A stretch of DNA of 64,000 nucleotides from an uncultured bacterium (GCA_942492765.1 OW818634.1:473159-537158); one strand, 5' to 3'. Counted from the stretch's first letter, positions 1,982-26,356 are shown. Translations and numbers: made by a program. Notes: generated by a model from the sequence alone, not told the origin.

Positions 1982-2106
1982 GGGGATATTATAACATGCG
2001 GGCGGAAGTTGTTCCAATATTATCTTATTAGTTTGATTGACAAAAAAGTGGTAATTATGATATATTTTTTTATTACTTTAACAATCATACACTTAAATAA
2101 TCAGCC

Positions 2107-2553
2107 ATGAAAAAACAACCACCCAAAGGAATCATGATTATTGATTGCAATCATAGACCTAGCGCTCCTAGAAGTGCAACAATAAGAGAACATAATGGCA
2201 ATGGTATTATAAATTTTGATTTAAATAATATGAAAGCCATTCCCGTCTCTTCTAAACTTAAAACGGGAGAAGCATTTATTAATCTAGAAGAAACAATTAG
2301 AAGATTCGGCCATAATTGGAAAAATAAGCCAGCCGATGCTAATGTGCTAGATAATATCAAAAAACAACTTGATGGAATCCCAAAAAAATTCAATCGACCA
2401 GGCATTTATTTATTATTCCCCGCAACCACCTATCTGAAAAAGGGTGGAAAACTATGTATCCGAGCGCTTAATTATGCTCAAAACGGCTGGTACGAAACCT
2501 TACTTTTCGACGAAGACCACTTTTCTAACAACGATTTTGTGGTGTGCACATGA
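2107..2553 (+). CDS. hypothetical protein (member of a 3-paralog family in this window)
   Basis: 148-aa ORF, AT-rich. Shares the ordered motifs TGEAF / I-x7-P / IYLLF / GKLCIRAL / DFVV with ORFs 37275-37868 and 39927-40466. Confidence 0.5.
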   Translation: MKKQPPKGIMIIDCNHRPSAPRSATIREHNGNGIINFDLNNMKAIPVSSKLKTGEAFINLEETIRRFGHNWKNKPADANVLDNIKKQLDGIPKKFNRPGIYLLFPATTYLKKGGKLCIRALNYAQNGWYETLLFDEDHFSNNDFVVCT

Positions 2554-2584
2554 TTCCGCCGCTTGAACGTCATTGAAATAAAAC

Positions 2585-2613
2585 AAAAAGACCTTTAACA
2601 TAAAGGTCTTTTT
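2585..2613. terminator. bidirectional rho-independent terminator between convergent genes
   Basis: aaaaa-GACCTTTA-aca-TAAAGGTC-ttttt; 8-bp stem flanked by an A-run and a T-run. Confidence 0.7.
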
Positions 2614-2633
2614 CATTTCTTTAAATTTATATC

Positions 2634-5291: not shown

Positions 5292-5343
5292 ACTTAAATG
5301 ATTATGATTAATAACGTTCTTATTATATCACACGCCAAACCAA

Positions 5344-5370
5344 TAAAAAAGCTCGGTTTTACCCGAGCTC
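5344..5370 (-). terminator. rho-independent terminator after the CDF transporter gene
   Basis: Minus strand reads GCTCGG-gtaaaa-CCGAGC followed by TTTTTT. Confidence 0.6.
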
Positions 5371-5383
5371 TGGCCGGCGGCCA

Positions 5384-6409
5384 TTAATTTATTTCGATGT
5401 CAATAAAGACTGCTTGCGGCACTTGAGCGCGAATCTTCTTCTCCAGCTCATCGATCTTGCGGCCGACTAGGCGCGGCACCCTGTCCATATAATCGACAGA
5501 AAACTTCATGAAATTCTCATAGCTCAACCTGGCCTCCTCGTATTCGTTCTCTAAAAAGTGATGTTTGGACAGTTCTCTAATCAAAGAAGAAGCATTGAAT
5601 TCGATATCGCATTTTATCAGGTACTTATCGACGTCTAAGATGGCTGACTTGAAATCCAAGACCTTCTCGACGGTCGGATCATTATTCAAGATATCGATGA
5701 TGAGTTCTTCGATCTCTTTCGGGATGGACTTAGTGATCAGATAATTGCGGTTCTTAGCGATCAGCATGATGGCCGCCACTCCCAAAAGCAAGCCGATGAT
5801 GATGGAGCCGATCGCATCCCAATAAGACTGGCCCGTCAGGTAAGCTAAGACGATGCTTAAGAAAGCGACGAAGACGCCAATGACAGCTAGTCCGTCCTCA
5901 TAGACTACGGCTAGAGTCGTCGGGTCAGCTTCGGCAATGATCTTGCTTAGTTTCTCCTCAGGAAAATGCTTCTTCAGGTCGCGATAAGCCAGCCAGAGGG
6001 TGAATGACTCGATGATAAATGCGATGATCAAGATATAGAGATTCAGGGGACGGAAATGAGCCTCTTGCCCATTGATAAGAGAAGTGATGCCATGATAGGT
6101 CGTGATGCCGCAGCCGATGAAGAAGATGCCGCAAGCGGAGATGAGCGCCCAGATAAAGCGTTCTTTGCCATAACCGTAAGGATAATCTTCGTCCGGCTTT
6201 TTTACCGATCGGCTGACGCCAATGATCAGCAATGATTGGTTAGCGGTGTCGGCGAGACTGTGGATGGCTTCGGAAAACATCGCTCCGGAACCGGTAACCA
6301 TGAAACCGAAAAATTTAGCCGCGCAGACTACGGCATTTCCCGTGAAGGCGGCGATGACGGGCAAAAGCCCTGAAATCTTCCCGTCTTTTCCTGTTTGAGC
6401 GCTTATCAT
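5384..6409 (-). CDS. cation diffusion facilitator family transporter
   Basis: Six predicted TM segments, HSLADTANQ motif typical of CDF TM2, C-terminal cytoplasmic domain. Confidence 0.75.
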   Translation of the reverse strand: MISAQTGKDGKISGLLPVIAAFTGNAVVCAAKFFGFMVTGSGAMFSEAIHSLADTANQSLLIIGVSRSVKKPDEDYPYGYGKERFIWALISACGIFFIGCGITTYHGITSLINGQEAHFRPLNLYILIIAFIIESFTLWLAYRDLKKHFPEEKLSKIIAEADPTTLAVVYEDGLAVIGVFVAFLSIVLAYLTGQSYWDAIGSIIIGLLLGVAAIMLIAKNRNYLITKSIPKEIEELIIDILNNDPTVEKVLDFKSAILDVDKYLIKCDIEFNASSLIRELSKHHFLENEYEEARLSYENFMKFSVDYMDRVPRLVGRKIDELEKKIRAQVPQAVFIDIEIN

Positions 6410-6430
6410 AATTTATGGATATTAATAGGC

Positions 6431-7462
6431 CTATCTTACCAGTTTGCCGGCTTGTTGCAAGAGATCGTACGAAGTGGCGGCGACTCGGTTTCGAGCTTTC
6501 GCGAATTTCTGCCGATAATAGGCGCCATTCTTCACAACCAGCTTCGCTCTTTTCAGAAGCGCCCCCGTCTTCAAGTCATCAAGCTCTACGACTAATTCCG
6601 GACAACCGATAAAACGCGCGAAATTGCGATTGCGCAGATCATAGGCGACATTTATTTCCGGAGTTAAAGCGCCGGCCGCCATGACACAAGAATGGAGCAT
6701 CATACCGATGACTAGATCCAGGGTTCCATAAAAGCCTTTCTGCGCGGCCGGAGCCAGATCGATGACTTTCAAATTTTTTATCTGCAAGCGCGGATAAATC
6801 TGCTCCTCGCCGGGATGATGCTTAAGATAATAGACTTGAGCGCCATAATTATCTTGAAAATATTCCGCTGTTTCTCGATAAGCTTTCAAGATATCCTTCT
6901 CCCAGCGGCCGAATCCCAACCAGCCGGAATAATTAAGATTCAATCCGAGCTTGAAGCCCGACTTAACCTTGGCTGGTTTGATCTCTTCTAAGCAGAAAGC
7001 CGGATCGCCGATGACTTTGACTTTAGTCGCCGGGATTCCCTGCTTGACCAGGAATCTCTTAGTATAATTCTCGCGCACGCCGACAAGAGCAGCCTTTCTT
7101 GCTAAAGCGACCAAGCTCTCGCGCTCTGTCTTCTTCAAAGCCGGGGCGCCGACCTCACGGATATAGCCGACACCGTAAATCACTAAAGGGATCCTGATAG
7201 CGACGATCATCTCTTTGGAAAACGGCAAAAAATATCGATAAAAGACCCCGCCTCCGCCAAAAACCGCTAGGTCGGAACGATTAATAACTGCCGCCTGCCG
7301 AGCATCCAGAGTCTTCAAGACTTCAATCGGAAAATCGCTTATCTTAGCGCCCGGATAAGCGGCGCGAAGCTGCTCCTGAACGGCCAAGACTATTCCCAAA
7401 TCTCCTTTATTAGTCTTATCCCAGACGTGAATATGGGCGATTGATAACGGCTTTGACGCCAT
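6431..7462 (-). CDS. polysaccharide pyruvyl transferase family protein
   Basis: N-terminal HVWDKTNKGDLGI and VFGGGGVF motifs typical of PS_pyruv_trans. Confidence 0.6.
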   Translation of the reverse strand: MASKPLSIAHIHVWDKTNKGDLGIVLAVQEQLRAAYPGAKISDFPIEVLKTLDARQAAVINRSDLAVFGGGGVFYRYFLPFSKEMIVAIRIPLVIYGVGYIREVGAPALKKTERESLVALARKAALVGVRENYTKRFLVKQGIPATKVKVIGDPAFCLEEIKPAKVKSGFKLGLNLNYSGWLGFGRWEKDILKAYRETAEYFQDNYGAQVYYLKHHPGEEQIYPRLQIKNLKVIDLAPAAQKGFYGTLDLVIGMMLHSCVMAAGALTPEINVAYDLRNRNFARFIGCPELVVELDDLKTGALLKRAKLVVKNGAYYRQKFAKARNRVAATSYDLLQQAGKLVR

Positions 7463-15139: not shown

Positions 15140-15213
15140 GGGCCCTTAGCTCAGCTGGCTAGAGCACCTGCTTTGCAAGCAGGGGGTCATCGGTTCGAAT
15201 CCGATAGGGTCCA
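15140..15213 (+). tRNA. tRNA-Ala(UGC)
   Basis: Manual cloverleaf: GGGCCCT/AGGGTCC acceptor, GCTC..GAGC D-stem, CCTGC-TTTGCAA-GCAGG anticodon arm, ATCGG-TTCGAAT-CCGAT T-arm. CCA not encoded. Confidence 0.95.
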
Positions 15214-16702
15214 CATTACGAGATTTGGAGCATTCCAAGTCTCTTTTTGTTTCTAAGATTGGCGATAATTTCGGAGTTTGAAATGTGTAAAAATTAAAAG
15301 AGGGCTTTTCCTTAAAAATCGAACTCTGAACTTTAAGTTTAGTGGCATAATTGGCCTTTTGATAGAAGTCCGGCAGATCGCACATAAAATCAAAAACCTT
15401 ATCAAGATTCTTTTTAACGTCAAAACCATCGTCTTTACAATTCAAGAGTCTTTCCTGCTTATCAGACATCATAATTTTTACTTTATCCAATTCTTCCCTA
15501 AAATCCTCATCATCCAATAATTCCTTTTTCTTCATCTCGATTAATTTATCTTTCTCAGCTTTTAAATTTTCCAGTTGCGACTTGAGCGAACCAAAATTAC
15601 TATGTATCTCATTCTTTCTCTCGTCATAAACATCAATAATCGCTTTTTTAACGGCCTTGGCCATATAGGGCTGATAACTAATCTTTTTTAAACCAAGCGA
15701 AAAACTGTCTTCAACTTCTTTTTTAGTAATTGATTTTAACTGACCGCATTTTTTGTTATAGCATTTATAATAGGGATATTTAATGCCCATCTTACCGGTT
15801 GAAAAACAAGCAGTTAATGGACTACCACAATGCGGACAAACTACAAAATGCCTTAGAGGAAAACTTTCGTTAACTCGGCCCAAAGAAATGCAGTCGCCCT
15901 TATCAGCATTTCTAAATAATTTCTGACACTGCCAAAAAATACGCTCATCAATAAATTTTTCATGACTGCCGGCGTATTCTTGATTTTTAACTGTCATAAT
16001 CCCGATATAAAATTTTTCTCGGAGTAATTCGTGGAGCGTTTGCAAAGTTAACTCCCGGCCTTTATGCGTTCTAAAGCCTTTATCATTTAACATCTTTCTG
16101 ACTTGTTCAATTTGATATAAGCCGGTCGCAAACCGATCAAAAGCTAATTTAATTAAAGGCATACGTACCTTGTCGAAAATTATCATCGCTTTATTTTGAG
16201 CGTCTCGAGCGTTTAAATAGCCAAAGGGGGCTTTAAAACACCAAACGCCTTGTTTTATCCTTTCGTGCATACAAGAGGCGATTCTTTCGCTCCTAACATC
16301 ATTATCAAATTGAGCGACCGAGGCAACAATCGTTCCAACTAATCGACCGCTCGGCGTCTCGTCAACCGTTTCCGTCGTCGATATAAACTTAATTTTAAGT
16401 TTATAGAGCGACGCCAGGATGCCGGTATAGTCATTAACATTTCGAGACAGGCGGTCGATTTTATAAACAATTACACAATCAAGATTTTTAGCATTTTTTA
16501 CACAGTATTTTAATAATTCTTTTAAGCCCGGCCGTTCAATAGTTTTTGCCGACACGCCGTCATCGTGAAACAACTCGACAATTTCAATGTCGTGTTTAAG
16601 AGCATATTCCAAACAAGCGTTTTTCTGTTGTTCTAAACTAACACCGGATTGAGCCTGATCTTCAGTCGAAACCCGATAATAGATAATTCCTTTTTTAGTC
16701 AT
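15146..16702 (-). CDS. large serine recombinase (integrase)
   Basis: IIYYRVSTEDQ catalytic Ser, VYKIDRLSRN, recombinase domain, zinc ribbon CPHCGSPL...YYKCYNKKC, coiled-coil LENLKAEKDKLIEMKK. ATG at 16702 (track start 16813 is upstream junk). The last ~22 codons are antisense of tRNA-Ala. Confidence 0.9.
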   Translation of the reverse strand: MTKKGIIYYRVSTEDQAQSGVSLEQQKNACLEYALKHDIEIVELFHDDGVSAKTIERPGLKELLKYCVKNAKNLDCVIVYKIDRLSRNVNDYTGILASLYKLKIKFISTTETVDETPSGRLVGTIVASVAQFDNDVRSERIASCMHERIKQGVWCFKAPFGYLNARDAQNKAMIIFDKVRMPLIKLAFDRFATGLYQIEQVRKMLNDKGFRTHKGRELTLQTLHELLREKFYIGIMTVKNQEYAGSHEKFIDERIFWQCQKLFRNADKGDCISLGRVNESFPLRHFVVCPHCGSPLTACFSTGKMGIKYPYYKCYNKKCGQLKSITKKEVEDSFSLGLKKISYQPYMAKAVKKAIIDVYDERKNEIHSNFGSLKSQLENLKAEKDKLIEMKKKELLDDEDFREELDKVKIMMSDKQERLLNCKDDGFDVKKNLDKVFDFMCDLPDFYQKANYATKLKVQSSIFKEKPSFNFYTFQTPKLSPILETKRDLECSKSRNVDPIGFEPMTPCLQSRCSSQLS

Positions 16703-16739
16703 AAATTTAAAATTAATAAAAAGAGAGCAGTAAAACTGT

Positions 16740-16852
16740 TGGACACAATTAAGCAAAAACCTAATTGAAACAGCTACTGCTCCCTTTATCTCAAAACGAC
16801 ATCTCGCCGTCATTATGACTTAAGCAGATTTTCGCCATATTAATTGTGTCCA
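16740..16852. repeat. 13-bp perfect inverted repeat flanking an 87-bp segment upstream of the recombinase gene
   Basis: TGGACACAATTAA at 16740-16752 and its exact reverse complement TTAATTGTGTCCA at 16840-16852. Confidence 0.8.
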
Positions 16853-16893
16853 TTAAGGATATTAGCATAAATTTCTATTTTTACAAGATTAAG

Positions 16894-17046
16894 CTACATC
16901 AAGGTCGGATTAATATGGCGTTTATAATACTCAAAAGCCAAATAAGCTAATTGATACAAATCACGGCTAACTTCCATTAATTGAGCGTCGGTATATTCCG
17001 AAGATTTCGGGCCGACTAACTCTTTCATTTTTTCTAGTGTTAACAT
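16894..17046 (-). CDS. small hypothetical protein (50 aa), paralog of 17072-17221
   Basis: Own translation: MLTLEKMKELVGPKSSEYTDAQLMEVSRDLYQLAYLAFEYYKRHINPTLM. Aligns without gaps to the neighbouring small ORF. Below the ORF-track size cutoff. Confidence 0.4.
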   Translation of the reverse strand: MLTLEKMKELVGPKSSEYTDAQLMEVSRDLYQLAYLAFEYYKRHINPTLM

Positions 17047-17071
17047 ATATTTTATTGATTATTATTTATAT

Positions 17072-17221
17072 TTATTTAAATAAGTTAGGATTTTGCTGAT
17101 GGATATCAAAGGCGAGATGAGCAAAGGCATAAATATCGTGCCTTATTTCTTCAAGCTCTTCATCGGAAAACCGCTTAGCACGACCTCCCAGCAGTTTTCG
17201 CAGAGCCTCTAAGCTCATCAT
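17072..17221 (-). CDS. small hypothetical protein (49 aa), paralog of 16894-17046
   Basis: Own translation: MMSLEALRKLLGGRAKRFSDEELEEIRHDIYAFAHLAFDIHQQNPNLFK. Shared columns LE..L.G......D..L.E...D.Y..A.LAF. Confidence 0.4.
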   Translation of the reverse strand: MMSLEALRKLLGGRAKRFSDEELEEIRHDIYAFAHLAFDIHQQNPNLFK

Positions 17222-17276
17222 TCAATCCCGAAAAATGTCTGCAGAACATTTTAATTAGTGAATTAAAATGTCTTTG

Positions 17277-18131
17277 TTAAAAGACAATATCATCTATATT
17301 CAGTTCTTTATTATTCGTTATTTTTTCTGATTTATTATTTTTAATAATTTTATCTAATTCTTCGTTGTTTATTTCGTTTATTTTATAAATAGTTTCTTTA
17401 ATTTGACCTAAGCGGTCGCTGTAGAATTCCCGTTCTTTAATCAGATCTAAAGAATCGGGGCTAAAGAAGTCTAAGAAATTGTCCACCTCGTCCGGGTAGT
17501 CAATTATTTCCGGTTGATTAAGGTTTTTTGAGTAGAAAAATTTTCGTTTCCTAAAATATCTCGGATCGAACATTTCCTTGCTTAAATATTTCGAGATATA
17601 AATACCGATATTCTTGGCGTTATTAATAGGCCTAAAATTAATAAAACCATTTTTCCAATATTTGTCGGCAAACCACCGTTCGTATTCTTTCCGCTTATCG
17701 CCAGTTTCAAATTCCGGCAGAGGATAGTTAGAAACTAAATGATAATGAACTCTTTTTGACTGCGACTGAAATTCGGGAACGGCTAAATATTGAAAATCAT
17801 TTTGGCCATAACTGATCCGCTTAATAAAGCGGTCAAAATATTTATTGGCCGTTTTTAAATCCAATATTTCGTCTTTGAATGTCAGCGTCAAAAAAGTTTT
17901 GAGTTGCGGATTAGAATTAATCAGGCGAGTTATTTTCTGCCTGGCTCGCTTAACATTATCTTCTCTAATTTTAATCTGCTCCGATTCTAAGCGAATATGC
18001 TTAAATTCAGGGCGATGAATTTTCCGATACTGTGGCCAACCGACCCAATATGATTTCTCATACTCAAATATCTCAATAATATTTCCGGACTTGATGATTT
18101 TTTTCTTGACCTCATAAGGTAAACCACCCAT
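17277..18131 (-). CDS. HUH-superfamily rolling-circle replication initiator (Rep)
   Basis: Three ordered RCR motifs: FLTLTF (motif 1), VHYHLV (HUH, motif 2), IYISKYLSK (catalytic Tyr, motif 3). Confidence 0.75.
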   Translation of the reverse strand: MGGLPYEVKKKIIKSGNIIEIFEYEKSYWVGWPQYRKIHRPEFKHIRLESEQIKIREDNVKRARQKITRLINSNPQLKTFLTLTFKDEILDLKTANKYFDRFIKRISYGQNDFQYLAVPEFQSQSKRVHYHLVSNYPLPEFETGDKRKEYERWFADKYWKNGFINFRPINNAKNIGIYISKYLSKEMFDPRYFRKRKFFYSKNLNQPEIIDYPDEVDNFLDFFSPDSLDLIKEREFYSDRLGQIKETIYKINEINNEELDKIIKNNKSEKITNNKELNIDDIVF

Positions 18132-18148
18132 ACGCTTTTTATTATTGT

Positions 18149-18213
18149 CTTAGATTAATAACTTGCTTTTTCGACTCGTGTAATATGAGTGAATAATCAA
18201 GTTATTTATTAAG
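18149..18213. repeat. AT-rich imperfect inverted repeat, candidate double-strand origin with AACTTGAT word
   Basis: Arms CTTAGATTAATAACTTG (18149-18165) and CAAGTTATTTATTAAG (18198-18213). On the rep-coding strand the stem/loop junction reads AACTTGATT (plus 18195-18203). Confidence 0.4.
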
Positions 18214-18231
18214 TTTTTAAAGTACACGCTC

Positions 18232-18265
18232 GGGCGTTAGCAGAACGCCCTCGCTTTTGTTTTTT
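18232..18265 (+). terminator. terminator-like hairpin oriented antisense to the rep leader
   Basis: GGGCGTT-agcag-AACGCCC followed by TCGCTTTTGTTTTTT on the plus strand only. Confidence 0.45.
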
Positions 18266-18277
18266 ACGCCTATCCGG

Positions 18278-18342
18278 CCATTCCGTTTTTCGGCCCGGCT
18301 CCCCCACGGGGGATCCGCCGGGTCCGAAAAAACGGAAAATGG
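18278..18342. repeat. long GC-rich imperfect hairpin, candidate single-strand origin
   Basis: CCATT-CCG-TTTTT-CGG-CCCGGC-[TCCCCC ac GGGGGA]-tcc-GCCGGG-t-CCG-AAAAAA-CGG-aa-AATGG. A GC-rich island inside an AT-rich spacer. Confidence 0.6.
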
Positions 18343-18437
18343 CGAGAAAAGAGGGCAATATAAACAAAAAACCATAAGCTTAGTGTTTATGGTCTTATGA
18401 TAACGAATTAAGTTTTAGCAATATATCCCCGGTAAAA

Positions 18438-19112
18438 TTATTTTACTTGTCCGGTCAGTTTCTTGGAATAATCCAGGAGTCTTTTAATAATTTTAGCGAT
18501 ATCTTGATAACCGAGGGTTTTGTCGGGGTATTTTTCATTAATTATCGAGGCAATTTCCTTGTCTTTTTTGCCGTTTTGGCGTAACCGGTATGTTTCCAGG
18601 TCTCGGACGATATTAGTCCGTGGCGAGGCTTTTAGGGGCTTATGATCGGACAATCTAACGACTGTCCGTCTTATTTCATTCCAATTATTTTGCAGTTCCG
18701 TGATAGTCGTTTCCGGATTTAAGCGGATAACGGTAAATTGCTCTTTAGGGTTGGACGGATTTTTAATATTAAAAGGATAAAGTTCCTCGGGCAGACCAGA
18801 ATAGCTGATAATATCTCGTTGTTCAATAAAATCTTTTAATGAAGTCTGATAAGCGGAGGACAAATGATATTTTAATCGCAAGTCGGAAACAGCTTTATCA
18901 TAATTAACCGTAAACTGATGAACATCGTCGAGATTTTTTATTTTAATTGTCGTTTTTACAGATTCAGACAAATTAATATAGTTCTCCATCCCCTCCCCGG
19001 GAACATATAATTTAAGTATCGGCACATTTTCTCGGATGTATTGGATGTCAGCTCTAAAACCCTCATTCGTGGCATAAATTATATGGATATTTTGAGAAAA
19101 ATTAGAGGGCAT
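18438..19112 (-). CDS. hypothetical protein, third gene of the XRE-ImmA operon
   Basis: 224-aa ORF starting 4 nt after the ImmA stop. C-terminal segment RDLETYRLRQNGKKDKEIASIINEKY...IAKIIKRL looks HTH-like. No recognisable catalytic motif. Confidence 0.55.
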   Translation of the reverse strand: MPSNFSQNIHIIYATNEGFRADIQYIRENVPILKLYVPGEGMENYINLSESVKTTIKIKNLDDVHQFTVNYDKAVSDLRLKYHLSSAYQTSLKDFIEQRDIISYSGLPEELYPFNIKNPSNPKEQFTVIRLNPETTITELQNNWNEIRRTVVRLSDHKPLKASPRTNIVRDLETYRLRQNGKKDKEIASIINEKYPDKTLGYQDIAKIIKRLLDYSKKLTGQVK

Positions 19113-19116
19113 AATT

Positions 19117-19623
19117 TCAAGAAATATTTTTTATTAATTTCTCATTAATTACTTTGTGCCAAAGAGCTTCATCGCTAACAATGTACCTATTTGCTAATAA
19201 TTTCATATCCTTTTTACCATTTTCGATATCCTTCTTTAACATGCTTGTTGGCATCAATAACTCGGCGGCGAATTGATTTGCCTCAGTTTCTTCCGGCTTA
19301 TTACTATCTGAATCTAAATATACATGAGAAGTGGTGTGTCTGAGAATCATGTGACCTATTTCATGAGCTACTGTAAATCTTTGACGATGGATATTCTTAT
19401 TATCATTATAACCAATAACTGGTTTCCCGTTATTATCTATTTGAATACCATCAGTTTTATCACCTAAATCCCATTTATAAACTTCTAAGCTATATTTATT
19501 TTTTAAAAAAGGGATAATAGTGTTTAAAAGAATCGGCGGCTCTAAAATACCTAATTCTTCAATTAATTCCTTAGCTAGTTTTCTAGCTAAAATAATTCTT
19601 GGGGTAATTTTATCTTCAGGCAT
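19117..19623 (-). CDS. ImmA/IrrE family zinc metallopeptidase
   Basis: HEIGHMILRH (HExxH) followed by EANQFAAELLMP, the M78/COG2856 signature. 8-nt overlap with the upstream XRE gene. Confidence 0.85.
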   Translation of the reverse strand: MPEDKITPRIILARKLAKELIEELGILEPPILLNTIIPFLKNKYSLEVYKWDLGDKTDGIQIDNNGKPVIGYNDNKNIHRQRFTVAHEIGHMILRHTTSHVYLDSDSNKPEETEANQFAAELLMPTSMLKKDIENGKKDMKLLANRYIVSDEALWHKVINEKLIKNIS

Positions 19624-19948
19624 CTTTTTGTTTTTTTATAAAATCGACAAAGTCCATTATTTGTTTCTGATCTTTTGGCGTCAAATCTTTATCTGACCTC
19701 AAGGCCGCTCTAAAGCTAGGGGTTTCATCCTTACCTAAAAAAAACTTAATGTCCCTATGCAAGAACTCGGCAAACTTATCAAGGTCGTCGACGGAAACCT
19801 TTCTGTCCCCCGCCTCAATCAATGATATTGCTGTGGCCGACTCGAAGCCTACATGTTCGGCCAAATCTTTTTGAGAAATACCAGCCGCATCTCTTGCCTC
19901 TTTAATTCTAGCCCCTATTAATTTATATGGGTTTTCTTCATTTTTCAT
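19616..19948 (-). CDS. XRE-family helix-turn-helix transcriptional regulator
   Basis: IGARIKEARDAAGISQKDLAEHVGFESATAISLIEAGDRKVS is a typical HTH_3. Confidence 0.85.
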   Translation of the reverse strand: MKNEENPYKLIGARIKEARDAAGISQKDLAEHVGFESATAISLIEAGDRKVSVDDLDKFAEFLHRDIKFFLGKDETPSFRAALRSDKDLTPKDQKQIMDFVDFIKKQKDA

Positions 19949-19966
19949 ATTGATAAATTTTTATTT

Positions 19967-20005
19967 TCAAATTGACTTGACAAATCTATTTCAATTTGAT
20001 AATAT
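19967..20005 (+). promoter_or_regulatory. sigma70-like promoter bracketed by a 9-bp inverted repeat (candidate XRE operator)
   Basis: -35 TTGACA 19977-19982, 17-nt spacer, -10 TAATAT 20000-20005. TCAAATTGA (19967-19975) and TCAATTTGA (19991-19999) are exact reverse complements. Confidence 0.6.
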
Positions 20006-20073
20006 TATATTAGCAAAAAGAAAACCACTTGTAAAGGCCGATGGTTTTCCACTAATTAACCTAGAGCAAAAAT

Positions 20074-20400
20074 ATGATCTACCAATACAAAGGAAATTAC
20101 GTCTATAATAAACTCTCAATAACACAATATGCCAGCGATGGCATAGGGGTATATTATTGCGGCAGCAAAAACGCTGATGGTTCCCTGTTCCCCCTATACA
20201 TAGGCCGAGCAAAAGGAGAAAATGTCTCTATAAAAAGCAGACTTCTTGATCATTTTAGAGACGACAACTGGTCTGATGTTAGTATTTTTGGCTATCGTGA
20301 ATGTACCACGATGAAAGAAGCGGAAGATTTAGAAGCCGCAGAAATAGCAAAATTCAAGCCAAAATATAACACCCAGCTAAAAGCTATCAGATACTTCTAA
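20074..20400 (+). CDS. small stand-alone GIY-YIG nuclease-domain protein
   Basis: GVYYCG ... LYIGRA ... SRLLDH ... EAEDLEAAEI ... KPKYN reproduce the GIY, YIG, Arg, Glu and Asn positions of the fold. 108 aa. Confidence 0.6.
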   Translation: MIYQYKGNYVYNKLSITQYASDGIGVYYCGSKNADGSLFPLYIGRAKGENVSIKSRLLDHFRDDNWSDVSIFGYRECTTMKEAEDLEAAEIAKFKPKYNTQLKAIRYF

Positions 20401-20415
20401 AAGCTAACCAACTAA

Positions 20416-20446
20416 AGCCGTTCTATCTCACAGAGCGGCTTTTTTA
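20416..20446. terminator. bidirectional terminator between the GIY-YIG ORF and res
   Basis: AGCCGTTCT-atctcac-AGAGCGGCT followed by TTTTTT. Confidence 0.65.
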
Positions 20447-20450
20447 TTAT

Positions 20451-22685
20451 TTATAACTCCAAAAATTTCCAGTCTTTCAGATCGTTGGGGTTATATTCGT
20501 ATTTTAATCCATTATGATAACGCCAACTATTTTTTTCTTTTAGAACGATTCCACCGTAAAGTTTTTTGCCTTTTTTATTATGCTCGGCAATATATTTTGC
20601 CAAGCCCTCGGCTCGTGATTTAGCTGTTTCGGCGGTTAACCCACCTTTTGTATCAAATAAGCCGATGTGTCCGTCTTTTTGCATTATTACAAAATCAATA
20701 TAAAACGGTTTTTCAATTCCATGCTCTGTATGCGGTACCGCAAAATATGATCCGTCTTTTGTCCCATTCTTAAACCACCACTCAATAGATTTTGCTTTTT
20801 CTAAATATTGAATAAAATCGACTTCTAAATCGCTATCTTCTTCAAATAAACTAGCCGTCCCTATGCCCGATTTCTTTGTGTAATAAGCCTGTATTACAGA
20901 TTTTTTATAATCTTTTTTCGCAAAAGACAATGTATAATTTATTACTTTAGGAACATCCCATGACTCTTCATTTTTTACCAATTCATTTTTTCCTTTGCCA
21001 ACTTCTTCTTGATACATCTCTTTTGCGAGATTAATAACGTCAACCATTATTTGACGATTTTCCTCGGCAAGAACGGCCGCCTGAATCTTGGGCCATTCGT
21101 CTTCATTCCGAGAGGCCTCAAAAAATGAATAAATCGAACTTTTTATACGACCGATAGAGCGTTGTTCCGGTTCAAATGGGGCAAGATTATTTCGAGCAAA
21201 CATATCAAAAGCATTTTGCAATTCAACTTCATTTTTAGGTATATCAAGAGTGCCTTTTTTATCTATACTCGCCATTTCTTTATCGACATCCGCAATATGA
21301 CCACTCGCAATAAGGCTAGTTTTTAATATGCTGTGCTTAAATGAAAACTTTTCTTTGAGTTTTAACTTCTTGCCCGCCTCGATAAATAGAGGAGTAAAAT
21401 CAGACGAAAGACGAGTTTCTTCTCGAAAACGTTTTGAGTGATAAGAAACTAAACCGAGATTTTTATAATTTTTAATCCTATACCCCGTGTAAGTAGTAAT
21501 ATAATCACGAGATAAATCTTCTGCAACTTTTATATCTTGTAAACTTGTAAAAACATAACCGACATTTAAATCTTGATCTGAATAATGCCTTTGCTCCGGC
21601 ATACGCATAATACGTCCTAGTGTTTGGATAGAAAAAGTTATATTTTCCTCTCGCCATTGCCTAAATAAAACCAAGATTGTCGCCCGAGGACAATCCCAAC
21701 CAAGCGAGATTGCCTGTTTGAATATCATCACCTCAACTTCATTTTCATTCTTTTCTATATTGGCCAGATTTATTTTATTATCTTTATCTGAAAGATAAAT
21801 AGCGAGCCTGCCATTCTCCGTCGTATAACCAAATTTCTTAAGTAAAGCAAGAATCTCATCCTTTTTATCGACCACGCCCTGCATTGCATCCGGCAATTGG
21901 ATTAATAATAAAGGATTTACATCCGACCCCTCCGCCTCAAGATTTTTCCGTAATTCAAGTCGTTTTTTTATTGCACTTTCTAACACGAGTTCATCAGCAG
22001 ATTTATCGCTCTTCTTTTTATCTATTATATAATTCTCAAATCCGGGGTTGATAATAATTTCTTTCTTAATCATCTCCTCGTCTTTTACATCTTTAAGTTC
22101 CACTTCAACAATTCTATTAGCATTATTGAGTTGTGGGGTGGCGGAAACTTCTATTGTAATTTTAGGGCCAATATCCTGTATTAATTCTTTCGACTTCTCG
22201 CTATTAGCTGTATGATGGCTTTCATCTATAATGAGAAAAATTATTCTGCCCTCGTCTTTTGTGCGAGAAATAATATTTGAAAGATTATTATCCCTCTCGT
22301 TAGCACGAATATATAAATTGTCCTTTTTATTAATACTTGCCCAGTTTAAAAACAAAATCTCATTTTCACTAATTTTTCTATCATCTAAATCTTCAAAGTA
22401 AGAGCATTTTATACCTACGCCGTTTTGGTCGTAATATTTTTTAAGATTGTTTCGACTTTGGTCGTGTAATTTGTTGACAGCAATCCAAATAAACGAAAAC
22501 TTTTTACCATCTATACGAGAATCTACTAATCTTTTTAAAAATTCCGCCATCATCAGCGTTTTGCCGGAACCGGTCGGTGCTTTAAAAATTAATACCTTGT
22601 CACCGTCTGTATCTAAAAGTCTATTGGTCTCACGCTTGAGATCAACGACGGCGTTCTCTTGATAATTTTTAAATTCAAATATCAT
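20451..22685 (-). CDS. res: Type III restriction enzyme Res subunit (helicase + PD-(D/E)xK nuclease)
   Basis: SF2 motifs FKAPTGSGKTLMMA and LIIDESHH. C-terminal PFYIDFVIMQKDGHIGLFDTKGG is nuclease-like. ATG at 22685 preferred; the track start 22739 is TTG and overlaps the upstream ORF. Confidence 0.8.
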   Translation of the reverse strand: MIFEFKNYQENAVVDLKRETNRLLDTDGDKVLIFKAPTGSGKTLMMAEFLKRLVDSRIDGKKFSFIWIAVNKLHDQSRNNLKKYYDQNGVGIKCSYFEDLDDRKISENEILFLNWASINKKDNLYIRANERDNNLSNIISRTKDEGRIIFLIIDESHHTANSEKSKELIQDIGPKITIEVSATPQLNNANRIVEVELKDVKDEEMIKKEIIINPGFENYIIDKKKSDKSADELVLESAIKKRLELRKNLEAEGSDVNPLLLIQLPDAMQGVVDKKDEILALLKKFGYTTENGRLAIYLSDKDNKINLANIEKNENEVEVMIFKQAISLGWDCPRATILVLFRQWREENITFSIQTLGRIMRMPEQRHYSDQDLNVGYVFTSLQDIKVAEDLSRDYITTYTGYRIKNYKNLGLVSYHSKRFREETRLSSDFTPLFIEAGKKLKLKEKFSFKHSILKTSLIASGHIADVDKEMASIDKKGTLDIPKNEVELQNAFDMFARNNLAPFEPEQRSIGRIKSSIYSFFEASRNEDEWPKIQAAVLAEENRQIMVDVINLAKEMYQEEVGKGKNELVKNEESWDVPKVINYTLSFAKKDYKKSVIQAYYTKKSGIGTASLFEEDSDLEVDFIQYLEKAKSIEWWFKNGTKDGSYFAVPHTEHGIEKPFYIDFVIMQKDGHIGLFDTKGGLTAETAKSRAEGLAKYIAEHNKKGKKLYGGIVLKEKNSWRYHNGLKYEYNPNDLKDWKFLEL

Positions 22686-22704
22686 ATATTCTATTAATTT
22701 TTCT

Positions 22705-23442
22705 TTAAAATACTGTTTTTGATATCTTTTCAACTCCAATAATTAGCTCTTCAATATCTTCTTGTTTCGGTTCAACTTTTTTATCATGGTCACATAAGTT
22801 TCGCAAATCAGCTAATCTCTGAATATAACGCCAATCTTTAACTTCAATAATATCAGCATCTTTAATGGACTGATTATAATCATTTATCGTTGAATTCTTT
22901 TTTAAAATTTTGACATTATGATTATCACAAACCTCTGATAAGTGTTTTTCTAAAACAACGCCAGCTACGGCTCCGGCTCCACGAGCAAAACCCTTTTTAT
23001 TTAACTCCTTAGCCACTTCTAATTCTGAATCAAATAAATCAGCTTGCATTAACTGTTTTATATCAAAAAGGGAACTTTCAAATCTCTTTTGACACGACTT
23101 AATTATTGTTAATTGATTAACAAAAAATGATCTTGCAAAATCAACTTGTTTTGCTGGCTTATAATCAAACTCAACCATCACTCCCTCACTCCTTGGTGGT
23201 GTATAAATTAGAGCCTTTTTCAAAGCATCATTCTTTTTATTTTCATAATAATTTTTAAAATCATCTAATCTATCTGATAAAACTACTTTTACCAAATATA
23301 ATGCCTCCGAATACCAAATTTCATATTCTTCTCGAAATTTCAATAAATTATTATTATCTCCCTTTAGAATACCCAACAAAACATCTCCTTCTTGTACGAG
23401 TTTTTCTATATCATTCTTATATCTTTCTAAATTAAAAACCAT
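22705..23442 (-). CDS. hypothetical protein with C-terminal HEPN-like Rx4H motif, inserted between mod and res
   Basis: 245-aa ORF, 5 nt after the mod stop and 19 nt before the res ATG. ...GAGAVAGVVLEKHLSEV... then LADLRNLCDHD (R214-x4-H219, nt 22803-22786). Confidence 0.55.
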   Translation of the reverse strand: MVFNLERYKNDIEKLVQEGDVLLGILKGDNNNLLKFREEYEIWYSEALYLVKVVLSDRLDDFKNYYENKKNDALKKALIYTPPRSEGVMVEFDYKPAKQVDFARSFFVNQLTIIKSCQKRFESSLFDIKQLMQADLFDSELEVAKELNKKGFARGAGAVAGVVLEKHLSEVCDNHNVKILKKNSTINDYNQSIKDADIIEVKDWRYIQRLADLRNLCDHDKKVEPKQEDIEELIIGVEKISKTVF

Positions 23443-23447
23443 AATAA

Positions 23448-25181
23448 TTACTTAAAAATTTCCCTGTACACTTTCAATATCACCTCCGGAATTGCACATA
23501 ATGTCACTTTTTTCTTTATATCAGCAAACTTTTTCGCATGAGGGTCGTCTCCCATTGAAAAAACATAAGTGTTAAAATGCCCGTCAATATTTTTTATTAC
23601 TTTTTTATAATCATCTATTGCTTCCTCATAAAAAATAACACCAACGTATTTATCTGTATTCTTAAAAATTTTATATTCCGGAGTTTCTTTTATAGGTTCA
23701 AAAGCGTTCTCTAAAATACAGAGCATATCAGTAGATTCTTTAACTAGTTTTCTCTTATTTTTATCTGTTGGTTCTGCTTCAACAAAATCTGTTTTATAAT
23801 ATTTAAGATTTCCTCCCAACCCGTCTATCTTTTCATTCTTCTGATTTTTATAACCGGTAATTATTTTCTTTACACGTGGATAACAAATTTCTGTACAAAT
23901 TTCACCCTGATTATCAGTACAAAGAATAAAATTAAATTTACTTTTATTATCTTTATTGATTTCTAACACAGCTTGTCCTGTTGTGCCTGACCCAGCAAAA
24001 AAATCAAGAATAGTGGCATTTTTATTTAAATCAACTGAATTAATTAGTCTTTTAATAATCTCCGTCGGCTTGGAATACTTAAATACGTGATGATCAAAAA
24101 TATCTTTTATAATAACGGAACCTTCGCCTGTTTTTATATCTGTTATTATATTCTTATAAGGGGTGCCTCTATCCAACTTATTTCCTTCATTATCAACAAA
24201 TAAATAATTCTTATAATAAACTGCCCAACCGCTTTTTTTAGTTTTAGATTTTTTAAAGACTATATAACCATTCTTAATACCCCACTGAACTTTTTCCTTG
24301 CCCCATTTCCATGTCCAACCATCATTAATAAACTTTGCTCTTCCGTTTGGATAACTAATGCTCCCATCTGGACAACTTATTGGATAATTTAATGAGTCAC
24401 TATATCTTAAGCCACCTCTATCGAGATTATCTACATAATGAGGACCCCTATCGGCGAAATAATCATCTCGTAATTTATAACGATTTACATCATACCCCTC
24501 AACATTCTTATTAAATTTCGTATTATTTATATTTCGTGCATAGACTAAAATATATTCTGTTACCGTGTCTATTGTTCTTGCATCGCTTGACCCAGTTTTA
24601 CTATGCCAAATAATATTTGCAATAAAATTTTCTGGTCCGAAAATCTCATCACAAAGCATTTTTAAAGGAGCTTGCTCATTATCATCAATACTAATAAAAA
24701 TTACCCCGCTCGCTTTCAAAAGATTTTTTGAAAGCTTCAAACGCTTTTCCATAAATGAAAGCCATTTACTGTGCCTAAAACTGTCCTCTTTATCAACAAA
24801 TTTATCATTATAGATAAAATCATTGTTGCCGGTATTATACGGCGGATCAATATATATTAAATCAATTGCCTCTTGGTGTGTAAAATTTAAAACAGCGAGC
24901 GAATGATAATTATCGCCCTCAATCAAAAAATTCACGAGCTTTGTTTTATCCGATTCAATAGCCTTATTCTTCACCTCTTTTAAAATAGGAAATGGCCGAC
25001 CCGCCATTTCATTTGGGAACATCTCATTTGGAGTACGAGCGTCTGGATTGACTAAAATATCTATTTTTTCTTCCGGCAAATCTCTGTGCCAAACAAGCCC
25101 ATATGTTGTGCTTTTAATTTTAATAATCTCTTTTATTAATTCTTCATTCGACCACCCTTCGTAATTCGTCTTTTTTGACAT
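23448..25181 (-). CDS. mod: Type III-style DNA methyltransferase (Mod; N6A/N4C beta class)
   Basis: LIYIDPPYNTG (motif IV) precedes FFAGSGTTGQAV (motif I), with the TRD between them. ATG at 25181 (MSKKTNYEGW...); track start 25244 is an upstream extension. Confidence 0.85.
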   Translation of the reverse strand: MSKKTNYEGWSNEELIKEIIKIKSTTYGLVWHRDLPEEKIDILVNPDARTPNEMFPNEMAGRPFPILKEVKNKAIESDKTKLVNFLIEGDNYHSLAVLNFTHQEAIDLIYIDPPYNTGNNDFIYNDKFVDKEDSFRHSKWLSFMEKRLKLSKNLLKASGVIFISIDDNEQAPLKMLCDEIFGPENFIANIIWHSKTGSSDARTIDTVTEYILVYARNINNTKFNKNVEGYDVNRYKLRDDYFADRGPHYVDNLDRGGLRYSDSLNYPISCPDGSISYPNGRAKFINDGWTWKWGKEKVQWGIKNGYIVFKKSKTKKSGWAVYYKNYLFVDNEGNKLDRGTPYKNIITDIKTGEGSVIIKDIFDHHVFKYSKPTEIIKRLINSVDLNKNATILDFFAGSGTTGQAVLEINKDNKSKFNFILCTDNQGEICTEICYPRVKKIITGYKNQKNEKIDGLGGNLKYYKTDFVEAEPTDKNKRKLVKESTDMLCILENAFEPIKETPEYKIFKNTDKYVGVIFYEEAIDDYKKVIKNIDGHFNTYVFSMGDDPHAKKFADIKKKVTLCAIPEVILKVYREIFK

Positions 25182-25232
25182 AAAAAAAAATAATAAATCC
25201 CCCGTCAAATCAACGGCAATAAATATATTCTT

Positions 25233-25293
25233 ATTATAACACAAAAAATCTGTGACGAAAACGGTTGTCTTTAAGCCAATTTTGTGTTATAAT
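25233..25293. promoter_or_regulatory. mirrored pair of divergent extended -10 promoters (14-bp perfect inverted repeat)
   Basis: TTTTGTGTTATAAT occurs on the plus strand at 25280-25293 (with -35 TTGTCT 25265-25270, 17-nt spacer). Its exact reverse complement is at 25233-25246, facing mod. Confidence 0.65.
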
Positions 25294-25337
25294 TAAAGTA
25301 GTTTTAGATAAAAATATGATAAAAAAATAATAATTAT

Positions 25338-26225
25338 ATGGGAATTATCTCTTTGTTTATTTCTATAAAAACCGTAACGGTCGTCATATTTCTTCTAATT
25401 CTTTTTGCTTTAATAATAAAATTTCTATTTTCAAAAAAATCGGAAAGCAATATTATTAAAATTATCGGCGGATTAGTAGTCTTTATCGTTGCCATAATTT
25501 CAGACAATGGCTGGGTATTTTGGACCTCACTTTTTATTGGGGGGTTAATTATTGCCAGTGAAGACTTTATGAAATTTTTAGTTGCCATATTAAAAACACG
25601 TGGTGATAAAATTTCCGATACAGTTGCCTCTTTTGGAGCCACCAGAGAAGAGCCGGCGACACCGCAGGAAGACGATGAAAAAAAGAACGAAGAATTTAAG
25701 GACATTGTTCCCGAAAAAGAAATAACTGATCACGCTAACCGAGAAGATAGTCATCGAGATTGGATAAAAAAAACAAGAATATCAGAGGAACTTGTTTTAA
25801 ATTATTATAAAGAAATATTCAATAGAGTCATAGAAAAACAAATTAAAATTACAGACGAAAACTCTAATTTTATAATTGCTGACGGAATTTTAAAAAATGA
25901 TATTGGCAAAATTATAACCATTTTTGAAATTAAATTTTTAAGAAAATTCGACCCATTCATGATTAATATTAATATAAGAAGAACTCTTGAAAGAATGAGA
26001 TTTATTGTACCAAGTGATGTAATAATATCTCTAAATATTGTTTTTGAGGGCGATGTCGACGAACGAAGCTTGGATAGAATTTTTAATAGACTTACATACA
26101 AAAATTTTCAATTAATTTTATTTAAACTTAAAGATGAGAAAATAAATAAAATTGCCCAAAATGTAATGCGTAACGATAGTGTCCTAAAGCATTCTTTAAG
26201 CAATACAAATAAGTCATTTTATTAA
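25338..26225 (+). CDS. membrane-anchored protein with C-terminal PD-(D/E)xK-like motif
   Basis: Three N-terminal hydrophobic helices, an acidic linker, then NFIIADGIL-x11-IFEIKF (D182, E197, K199; nt 25881-25934). No other recognisable domain. Confidence 0.5.
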   Translation: MGIISLFISIKTVTVVIFLLILFALIIKFLFSKKSESNIIKIIGGLVVFIVAIISDNGWVFWTSLFIGGLIIASEDFMKFLVAILKTRGDKISDTVASFGATREEPATPQEDDEKKNEEFKDIVPEKEITDHANREDSHRDWIKKTRISEELVLNYYKEIFNRVIEKQIKITDENSNFIIADGILKNDIGKIITIFEIKFLRKFDPFMININIRRTLERMRFIVPSDVIISLNIVFEGDVDERSLDRIFNRLTYKNFQLILFKLKDEKINKIAQNVMRNDSVLKHSLSNTNKSFY

Positions 26226-26323
26226 AAACTCCTAACAACGCCCCAAAAACTCCGCCCAATACTTAATTTCCTCAATAATTTCGTCTAAAGAGTTGGAAAT
26301 CCGTTTTTTAACGACCACAAAAT

Positions 26324-26356
26324 AAAAAACCTCCAAATTTCTTTGGAGGTTTTTTT
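26324..26356. terminator. bidirectional rho-independent terminator
   Basis: AAAAAA-CCTCCAAA-tttc-TTTGGAGG-TTTTTTT. Confidence 0.8.

Follow-up and report, generated by a model that had tools for sequence, protein, structure and literature searches.

The subject of this analysis is a restriction-modification (R-M) operon carried by a 64,000-nt stretch of DNA from an uncultured bacterium (GCA_942492765.1 OW818634.1:473159-537158), referred to below, at its whole length, as the window. In this Type III operon, a gene encoding a 245-aa protein, called X here, lies between mod and res, and we predict that X is a latent RNase effector. Both the listing of open reading frames (ORFs) and the direct reading of the strand place the three genes on the minus strand, with 5 nt between the mod stop codon and the X ATG and 19 nt between the X stop codon and the res ATG. 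An earlier interpretation made from the DNA alone (the sequence-only reading) had given this gene order, the coordinates and the two gaps exactly; the C-terminal peptide that it quoted and the positions of R214 and H219 are also exact. Independent gene calls on two near-identical sister contigs, L081 and L082, also give proteins of 577, 245 and 744 aa (these names, like L001, L016 or P0317 below, are labels of homologous loci or contigs). The coordinates of all features are collected in Table 1.

The mod and res genes form a bona fide Type III operon in which X is tightly embedded. Mod has the features of Type III methyltransferases, i.e. it belongs to the beta-class N6/N4 enzymes, carries the DPPY and FxGxG motifs (read in translation within IYIDPPYNTG and FFAGSGTTG, respectively) and has a variable central target-recognition domain. 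The corresponding central region of mod (approximately 24024-24619) does not match L001, L002 or L016 at the nucleotide level; its flanks match these loci at 75-88% (85-88% for L001 alone). Between L001 and the window, Mod is 64-71% identical and Res 97% identical. This looks like an exchange of target-recognition domains, i.e. like different DNA specificities among related Type III systems. Res retains helicase motifs I, II and VI, with TGSGKT, DESHH and QxxGRxxR conserved. A motif near its C-terminus (YIDF...LFDTKG) was read by eye as PD-(D/E)xK-like, and MAFFT did not align it with the PD...ExK found in more distant Res sequences. Co-transcription of mod, X and res is supported by the short gaps, by the absence of strong internal terminators (the hairpins between the three genes are weak and intragenic only) and by a strong GC-rich hairpin located past res, which is likely the terminator closing the operon. 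Translation of X is probably coupled to that of mod and res. A promoter scan of this AT-rich DNA was uninformative (25 sites vs 24.6 expected).

Judging from its substitution pattern and its distribution, X is a functional gene under strong purifying selection. Indeed, its ratio of non-synonymous to synonymous substitution rates (dN/dS) is 0.04-0.06 relative to L081, L001 and L002, similar to those of mod and res, and clustering its homologs at 90% identity gives at least 4,440 clusters. At 50% identity, the family comprises 2,949 representatives, 513 of which are found at E<=1e-30, and at least 380 loci, from many phyla of bacteria and from some archaea, were confirmed in genomes. Nevertheless, X and its close relatives are unannotated everywhere because they fall below the Pfam gathering score. 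Scans of the single protein give no threshold match in Pfam, NCBIfam or PADLOC, searches of PDB sequences with the single sequence or with a profile find no relative, and tblastn against a collection of phage genomes gives no match. Marginal matches to PADLOC PDC-M57A (E 0.04) and to 4mi7 (26 residues, E 0.9) were dismissed as noise.

The C-terminus of X is a diverged DUF4145-like HEPN domain whose catalytic motif is intact. This identity is based on the invariance of the motif, the fold of the domain, sub-threshold Pfam matches and the homology detected by tblastn and hhalign. Taken alone, an Rx4H dyad in this protein is not beyond chance: Rx4H is present in 11% of the shuffled versions of X, 30% contain Rx4-6H and 1.8% contain R[NDH]x3H. 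The dyad formed by R214 and H219 is meaningful because of its conservation, the fold that surrounds it and profile homology. R214-N215-x3-H219, in which N215 is the polar residue that follows R in the Rx4-6H motif of the superfamily, is invariant in the 46 close homologs, and R214, N215 and H219 are each retained in 129 of 133 representatives displaying 33-52% identity with X. Furthermore, R154, G157, G161, E165 and H167, all located in the first long helix of the C-terminal domain, are conserved in at least 96% of these 133 representatives.

The AlphaFold2 (AF2) models, which are all models of monomers, divide full-length X (mean predicted local distance difference test score, pLDDT, 83) into two helical domains that split at residues ~131-137. 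Modelled alone, residues 136-245 reach a pLDDT of 91.8 and a predicted TM-score (pTM) of 0.83. When this model is compared with the PDB by Foldseek, ranks 1-35 are occupied by HEPN-superfamily structures only, with probabilities of 0.84-1.00 for the top 19 matches. They include TM0613, SsR10, HepT, AF_0298, ST0689, YutE, AbiV and Csm6', and among the corresponding entries are 1o3u, 2q00, 1wol and the HepT structures 6m6u, 5yep and 7bxo; superposition on 2hsb (AF_0298) gives a TMq of 0.77 at 2.7 A. The full-length model retrieves the same top matches. The C-terminal domain thus has the fold of HEPN proteins, compact and all-alpha with a four-helix up-down core.

The profile comparisons lead to the same superfamily and to DUF4145 as the nearest family. 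The three families most commonly matched below threshold by the 46 family members scanned with Pfam are DUF4145 (23/46), HEPN (PF05168, 17/46) and HEPN_Apea (15/46). The gathering threshold of DUF4145 (PF13643, 23.1 bits) is not reached, X itself having no match at E<=0.1 and the best family member an E of 0.002. By tblastn, residues 125-239 of X match genes of Acinetobacter plasmids (E 3e-9) whose products are named 'DUF4145 domain-containing protein' and 'HEPN domain-containing protein' by PGAP. Using hhalign, the family profile aligns over nearly its full length with WP_004740261, a PGAP 'DUF4145 domain-containing protein' (99.4%, E 2.5e-21), and also with WP_005065062 (99.1%, E 3.7e-19), which passes the gathering thresholds of both PF13643 (32.3 bits) and PF05168 (38.5 bits). 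In these alignments, the R-N-x3-H of X faces the RNNAAH of the Acinetobacter HEPN/DUF4145 proteins. The proposal, made in the sequence-only reading, that the 245-aa protein is a HEPN protein, perhaps of the DUF4145 type, is thus borne out by a check that it suggested, comparison of the structure with HEPN families, and by the conservation of the Rx4H motif, which is essentially invariant in close and distant relatives. As a side observation, residues 128-240 of X, i.e. the HEPN domain, match the phage protein family phrog_2039 (E 6e-6), a 312-position profile of unknown function; HEPN relatives therefore exist in phage genomes.

The N-terminal domain of X is all-helical (AF2 helices 4-25, 32-54, 56-66, 74-79 and 99-133), family-specific and the most variable part of the protein, with a mean column identity of 0.43 vs 0.61 for the C-terminal domain. 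It gives no specific match to PDB or viral folds, nor a specific match by sequence. None of the partner domains of DUF4145 (REase, Zn ribbon, DpnII/MboI-NTD, AbiJ-NTD1) was found by Pfam in the 46 family members. More precisely, a zinc ribbon is excluded by the lack of a Pfam match, of conserved Cys4 in the alignment and of anything but helices in the model, and the Pfam, NCBIfam and PADLOC scans found no NTPase domain in X. The long forms of X carry an insertion of ~25 aa in this domain. One of them, the 272-aa X of L016 (L016:4549-5367), is 54-60% identical to the X of the window overall, with 40% identity for the N-terminal domain and 76% for the C-terminal domain, Res being 89% identical; L016 has no nucleotide match over window positions 23090-23399 (~X residues 15-118). 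It looks as if the N-terminal domain had been replaced inside an otherwise conserved operon. Since it evolves fast, as expected of a sensor, we propose that this domain is a sensor or autoinhibitory module.

The genomic contexts of the X family were surveyed at 80 genome loci, where R-M neighbours were recognized by four home-made hidden Markov models. X belongs to R-M operons, at gaps of 12 nt or less, in 18 of the 80 loci, 14 of which rank among the 25 with the X most similar to that of the window. Most of the 80 loci have no adjacent R-M gene, and the more distant, slightly longer forms of X mostly lie in unrelated neighbourhoods. The embedding of X beside a restriction subunit recurs across unrelated R-M types, including Type III operons, Type-I-like operons with a fused HsdM/S, classical Type I operons and single-chain Type IIG/MmeI-like enzymes (Table 1). 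In a more distant Type III operon (L045), the order is mod-X-241aa-res, the additional 241-aa gene (L045:6819-7544) having no Pfam match. The Acinetobacter plasmid relatives are solitary genes located on small plasmids, near RelE/ParE toxin-antitoxin (TA) pairs. No MNT nucleotidyltransferase gene adjoins X in the window or in the 80 loci, and no small downstream partner or antitoxin is conserved, the 19 same-strand ORFs of 70-170 aa found after X being mutually unrelated. A recurrent two-gene module with HSDR_N_2, suggested by upstream neighbours of ~170-250 aa, was also rejected: the neighbour is an HNH protein in L017 and has no Pfam match in L029 and L066, and the HSDR_N-type matches of individually scanned neighbours (L022; HSDR_N in L006) lie inside large R-M proteins. 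Owing to these varied contexts, to its solitary plasmid relatives and to the lack of MNT or of any conserved small neighbour, X appears to need no fixed partner.

The orthologous Type III cores were examined through the operons of Res homologs 71-88% identical to the Res of the window, eight of which were informative. The search for Res homologs yielded ~7,500 sequences, and those of this widespread Type III family are mostly from Patescibacteria. A survey of Type III operons for the same insertion had been suggested by the sequence-only reading; the insertion recurs in one of the eight operons (L088, a 270-aa form of X, hhalign E 4e-88), whereas mod abuts res in six of them and a RelA_SpoT-domain gene occupies the slot in the remaining one (L094). 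This RelA_SpoT gene possibly encodes a toxSAS-type toxin acting on alarmones or modifying tRNA; the same operon has a DUF6119 gene after res. Four of the six operons in which mod abuts res carry a different gene directly after res. A 268-aa gene found after res in L093 was rejected as a homolog of X (hhalign probability 0.6%). According to these comparisons, the mod-res junction and the 3' end of res are accessory-gene positions. Since orthologous cores mostly lack X or carry other accessory genes, X is an optional, exchangeable cassette.

Table 1. Features of the operon, of its carrier element and of homologous loci
Feature	Location	Strand	Evidence or remark
mod, Type III Mod, beta-class N6/N4 DNA methyltransferase	23448-25181	-	577 aa from ATG; Pfam N6_N4_Mtase 6.4e-35, PADLOC MTase_III 5.8e-89
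X, two-domain protein	22705-23442	-	245 aa; predicted latent RNase effector
X N-terminal domain, residues 1-133	23044-23442	-	AF2 model; all-helical, family-specific, most variable part
X C-terminal HEPN domain, residues 138-245	22708-23031	-	AF2 model, Foldseek, sub-threshold Pfam
Predicted catalytic motif R214-N215-L-C-D-H219 (R-N-x3-H)	22786-22803	-	conservation; R214 at 22801-22803, H219 at 22786-22788
res, Type III Res, SF2 helicase	20451-22685	-	744 aa; Pfam ResIII 4.1e-21, DEAD 8e-9, PADLOC REase_III 1.5e-18
GC-rich hairpin, 11-bp stem, directly 3' of res	20414-20442	.	best terminator-like site in region
Low-GC integrative element, ~11 kb, carrying the operon	15140-26240	.	right-hand boundary approximate
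tRNA-Ala, island start	15140-15214
Large serine recombinase gene	15146-16813		Resolvase/Recombinase Pfam, phrog_95 integrase
Rolling-circle Rep gene	17277-18131		PF23343, phrog_3419
Unannotated 224-aa gene	18438-19112
1.34-kb insertion between res stop and 224-aa gene	19115-20450		HTH/ImmA/GIY-YIG-like
ImmA/IrrE M78 metallopeptidase gene	19117-19623		overlaps HTH gene
XRE-type helix-turn-helix (HTH) gene	19616-19948
Small ORF, weakly GIY-YIG-like	20074-20400	opposite to HTH/ImmA genes
295-aa ORF, diverging from mod	25338-26225	+	hydrophobic N-terminal third, GC 24-35%
Type III mod-X-res	L001, L002, L004, L013, L016		80-locus census
Type-I-like HsdR - X - HsdM/S fusion (R-X-MS)	L022, L023, L039		80-locus census
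Classical Type I with X	L003, L025, L056, L069		80-locus census; X before HsdR in L025
X directly after single-chain Type IIG/MmeI-like enzymes	L006, L008, L012, L014, L020		80-locus census
DUF3644 + EC042_2821 REase-like gene (HEPN family), directly after res	L089:6843-7841
Fic gene before mod	L090:1329-2486
Shedu SduA_C nuclease gene after res	L090:6745-7767
Gene of ~945-aa protein directly after res	L095:6737-9583		no Pfam match
Gene of ~945-aa protein directly after res	P0317		AAA_21/SMC_N matches
RelA_SpoT-domain gene, 355 aa, exactly in mod-res slot	L094:3431-4498		64.8 bits; mod 1669-3429, res 4501-6732

The presence of X in an R-M operon is of a known, computationally predicted kind and does not define a new type of system. 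The catalogue published in 2013 by Anantharaman et al. already linked at least 16 HEPN clades to R-M systems, several of them 'embedded in R-M operons', and listed DUF4145 as 'in operon with R-M' (PMC3710099). The view of the sequence-only reading that the architecture is non-standard is therefore not supported; the second-line RNase model that it mentioned for R-M-linked HEPN domains was proposed in the same work (PMC3710099). Like the DUF4145 clade (PF13643), X displays the R-N-x3-H motif and, in the first helix of the core, a conserved acidic residue (E165), its C-terminal domain is homologous to proteins passing PF13643 and PF05168 (hhalign 99%), and its family is found in R-M operons. Unlike this clade, it stays below the Pfam gathering score and carries its own helical N-terminal domain of ~135 aa, which matches none of the listed DUF4145 partner domains. 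Several other HEPN families embedded in R-M operons, namely Abi2/AbiF/AbiD, ApeA in epsilonproteobacteria, AbiU2, AbiJ solos, Ymh and EC042_2821/DUF3644 (PMC3710099), follow the same genomic logic, as does the gene found right after res in the L089 core, but they belong to different clades and carry different accessory domains, X being closest to DUF4145. HepT is, with minimal HEPN proteins, among the best structural matches of the C-terminal domain; however, unlike in HepT-MntA, no MNT partner accompanies X.

The best functional analogue for the mechanism that we propose for X is RAZR/PD-T7-4, a DUF4145 RNase that is activated by phage proteins, requires its R and H for defence and cleaves single-stranded RNA, thereby stopping translation (PMC13017515). 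Like X, RAZR is a small single polypeptide associating a non-catalytic N-terminal domain with a C-terminal DUF4145-type HEPN domain. However, its N-terminal domain is a Cys4 zinc ribbon, whereas that of X is all-helical and devoid of Cys4, and RAZR is encoded by a stand-alone gene, whereas X lies here inside an R-M operon. BxaP provides a further precedent (PMC10799925). The N-terminal domains of such proteins were proposed in 2013 to be inhibitors freed by viral components (PMC3710099).

Our preferred reading, to which we give about an even chance of being right, is that X is an autonomous sensor-plus-RNase abortive-infection effector, co-expressed with the R-M system as a back-up to the Type III enzyme. 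This reading draws on the intact HEPN active site, on the fast-evolving N-terminal domain and on the precedents of RAZR/PD-T7-4, BxaP and PrrC-PrrI. X would be a latent, metal-independent endoribonuclease, kept silent in healthy cells by its own N-terminal domain or by its oligomeric state. In the HEPN superfamily, such an activity is usually that of a dimer whose active site is composite. During infection, a phage cue would switch it on, and the active protein would cut cellular or phage RNA (tRNA, rRNA or mRNA) and halt translation, thus providing an abortive or growth-arrest back-up against phages that escape the Type III enzyme; its co-expression with mod and res would ensure that both defence layers are expressed and inherited together. 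The gene structure of X, its HEPN fold and homology, the conservation of its motif, purifying selection and the variable contexts are directly supported by the data; we infer its RNase activity, its latency and activation and its role in defence by analogy. The autonomy of X follows from the loci devoid of R-M genes, which are the majority, from the solitary plasmid relatives and from the lack of a conserved small neighbour or MNT. X would therefore be not an obligate R-M subunit but an optional cassette that has entered R-M operons of several types. An obligate form of the three-component system suggested by the sequence-only reading is weakened by the presence of the family in Type I, IIG and III operons and, mostly, alone, and by the cores that mostly lack X.

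Several points weigh against this reading. For the RNase activity, toxicity and phage defence attributed to X, we extrapolate from other families of HEPN proteins. Certain HEPN domains have other targets or a regulatory role although their motifs are intact. At 0.04-0.3, the Foldseek E-values of the C-terminal domain are weak, a usual situation with small helical bundles, so that the fold call rests on the uniform list of hits and on profile homology. The models used in the census may have missed other defence neighbours, and the recurrent tight embedding of X could reflect more than co-expression, namely a genuine coupling of a physical or functional kind.

Such a coupling is central to a reading modelled on PrrC-EcoprrI, a Type Ic system in which the gene of a HEPN RNase, the anticodon nuclease PrrC, also lies inside the R-M operon as a second line of defence and which served as the paradigm that the 2013 census applied to all R-M-linked HEPNs (PMC3710099). 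X would be bound and held inactive by Mod2Res, most likely by Res, and a phage anti-restriction protein that disables the enzyme would free it to cleave RNA, which corresponds to the three-component system of the sequence-only reading. When embedded, X almost always adjoins a restriction or translocase gene (before res, after R in R-X-MS, before HsdR in L025, after the Type IIG fusions), the gaps, 1-19 nt long, point to coupled translation and to a matched stoichiometry, and R-M-linked HEPNs were argued in 2013 to associate with the nuclease or helicase subunits and not with the methylases (PMC3710099). However, PrrC is masked physically by the Type I enzyme and carries an N-terminal ABC-type ATPase; X has no ATPase or comparable regulatory domain, the N-terminal ABC/Rad50-like NTPase that characterizes PrrC and RloC being replaced by a helical bundle of ~133 aa. 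Moreover, X lies here in a Type III operon, and a specific protein-protein interface is difficult to envisage for a family associated with four unrelated R-M architectures, and mostly with none. Type III cores that are orthologous do without X, another gene separates X from res in L045, and in L016 the N-terminal domain is replaced while Res is still 89% identical, which is the opposite of co-evolution with Res. An obligate masking of the PrrC type is thus argued against by the mostly non-R-M contexts and by the cores devoid of X, and we regard this reading as unlikely, although worth keeping in mind. Somewhat less probable again is that the mod-res junction and the 3' end of res serve specifically, in this Type III family, to accommodate toxin effectors that replace one another, e.g. 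X, a RelA_SpoT/toxSAS-like protein, a DUF3644 HEPN or a Shedu-type nuclease, and whose translation or activity is tied mechanistically to Res; X would then guard the integrity of Res and fire, for example, when an anti-restriction protein blocks it. If so, mod-X-res would be a true three-part DNA-plus-RNA system.

There are two further readings. X could be a toxin that, rather than defending against phage, maintains the R-M operon or the ~11-kb island carrying it, through competitive exclusion or post-segregational killing. TA systems often include HEPN toxins (PMC3710099), the operon is located on a low-GC integrative element encoding a serine recombinase and a rolling-circle Rep, and the Acinetobacter relatives lie on small plasmids beside RelE/ParE pairs. 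However, neither the window nor the 80 loci provide a cognate antitoxin, an MNT or a conserved small neighbour, and a stable toxin without a labile antidote cannot give post-segregational killing; we therefore consider this explanation improbable. The last one, which we hold to be very improbable, makes X a regulatory RNase or RNA-binding protein that would process or bind the mod-X-res mRNA and thereby delay or limit Res, as a C-protein does, during establishment in a new host. Type III systems need Res to be held back until the genome is methylated, X is placed exactly between mod and res, and a mobile element must establish in naive hosts. Nevertheless, most members of the family are encoded outside R-M operons, the various gene orders found inside such operons (R-X-MS, M-X-S, or X placed behind single-chain Type IIG enzymes) share no mRNA-processing logic, and orthologous operons manage without X.

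A layered DNA and RNA defence is, by analogy, the most plausible function of mod-X-res. Current concepts are unchanged, PrrC and RAZR being examples of a principle already predicted in 2013. The novelty is modest and consists of an abundant DUF4145-like subfamily that is unannotated and has its own N-terminal domain, of its documented presence in Type III operons, and of evidence that several accessories, X among them, are interchangeable on a common Type III scaffold. Missed by the current Pfam, NCBIfam and PADLOC models, this predicted toxin family is invisible to the annotation of defence systems, and its recognition as DUF4145-like HEPN would add a candidate single-gene abortive-infection module, as well as a further example of restriction systems layered with RNA-targeting back-ups. 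Furthermore, the different effectors found at the same two positions of orthologous cores constitute a simple natural experiment on whether accessories cooperate with the restriction enzyme or are just passengers.

Comparison with related contigs indicates that the whole operon is the cargo of a mobile element. Indeed, the block that it belongs to is common to L081-L083 at 93-97.5% identity, whereas the flanking genes are only 67-69% identical there; its GC content is 33.6% vs 45.8% for the rest of the window. The 3' end of the serine recombinase gene overlaps the tRNA-Ala gene on the opposite strand (15146-15214). The 1.34-kb insertion downstream of res is absent from L081 and L083, which are otherwise 93-97.5% identical, and from L001; in these loci, the 224-aa gene follows res by 4-5 nt. 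At the other end, the 295-aa ORF has no family match and is absent from the equivalent position in L081 and L082. Just beyond it, an 86-bp element (26244-26329) is 88-94% conserved in L001, L081 and L082, the sequence on either side being unmatched. It was rejected as a tRNA or as a copy of the tRNA-Ala end forming an att repeat, ARAGORN and Rfam finding nothing and no alignment to the tRNA being obtained; it may correspond to the other boundary of the island or to an att site.

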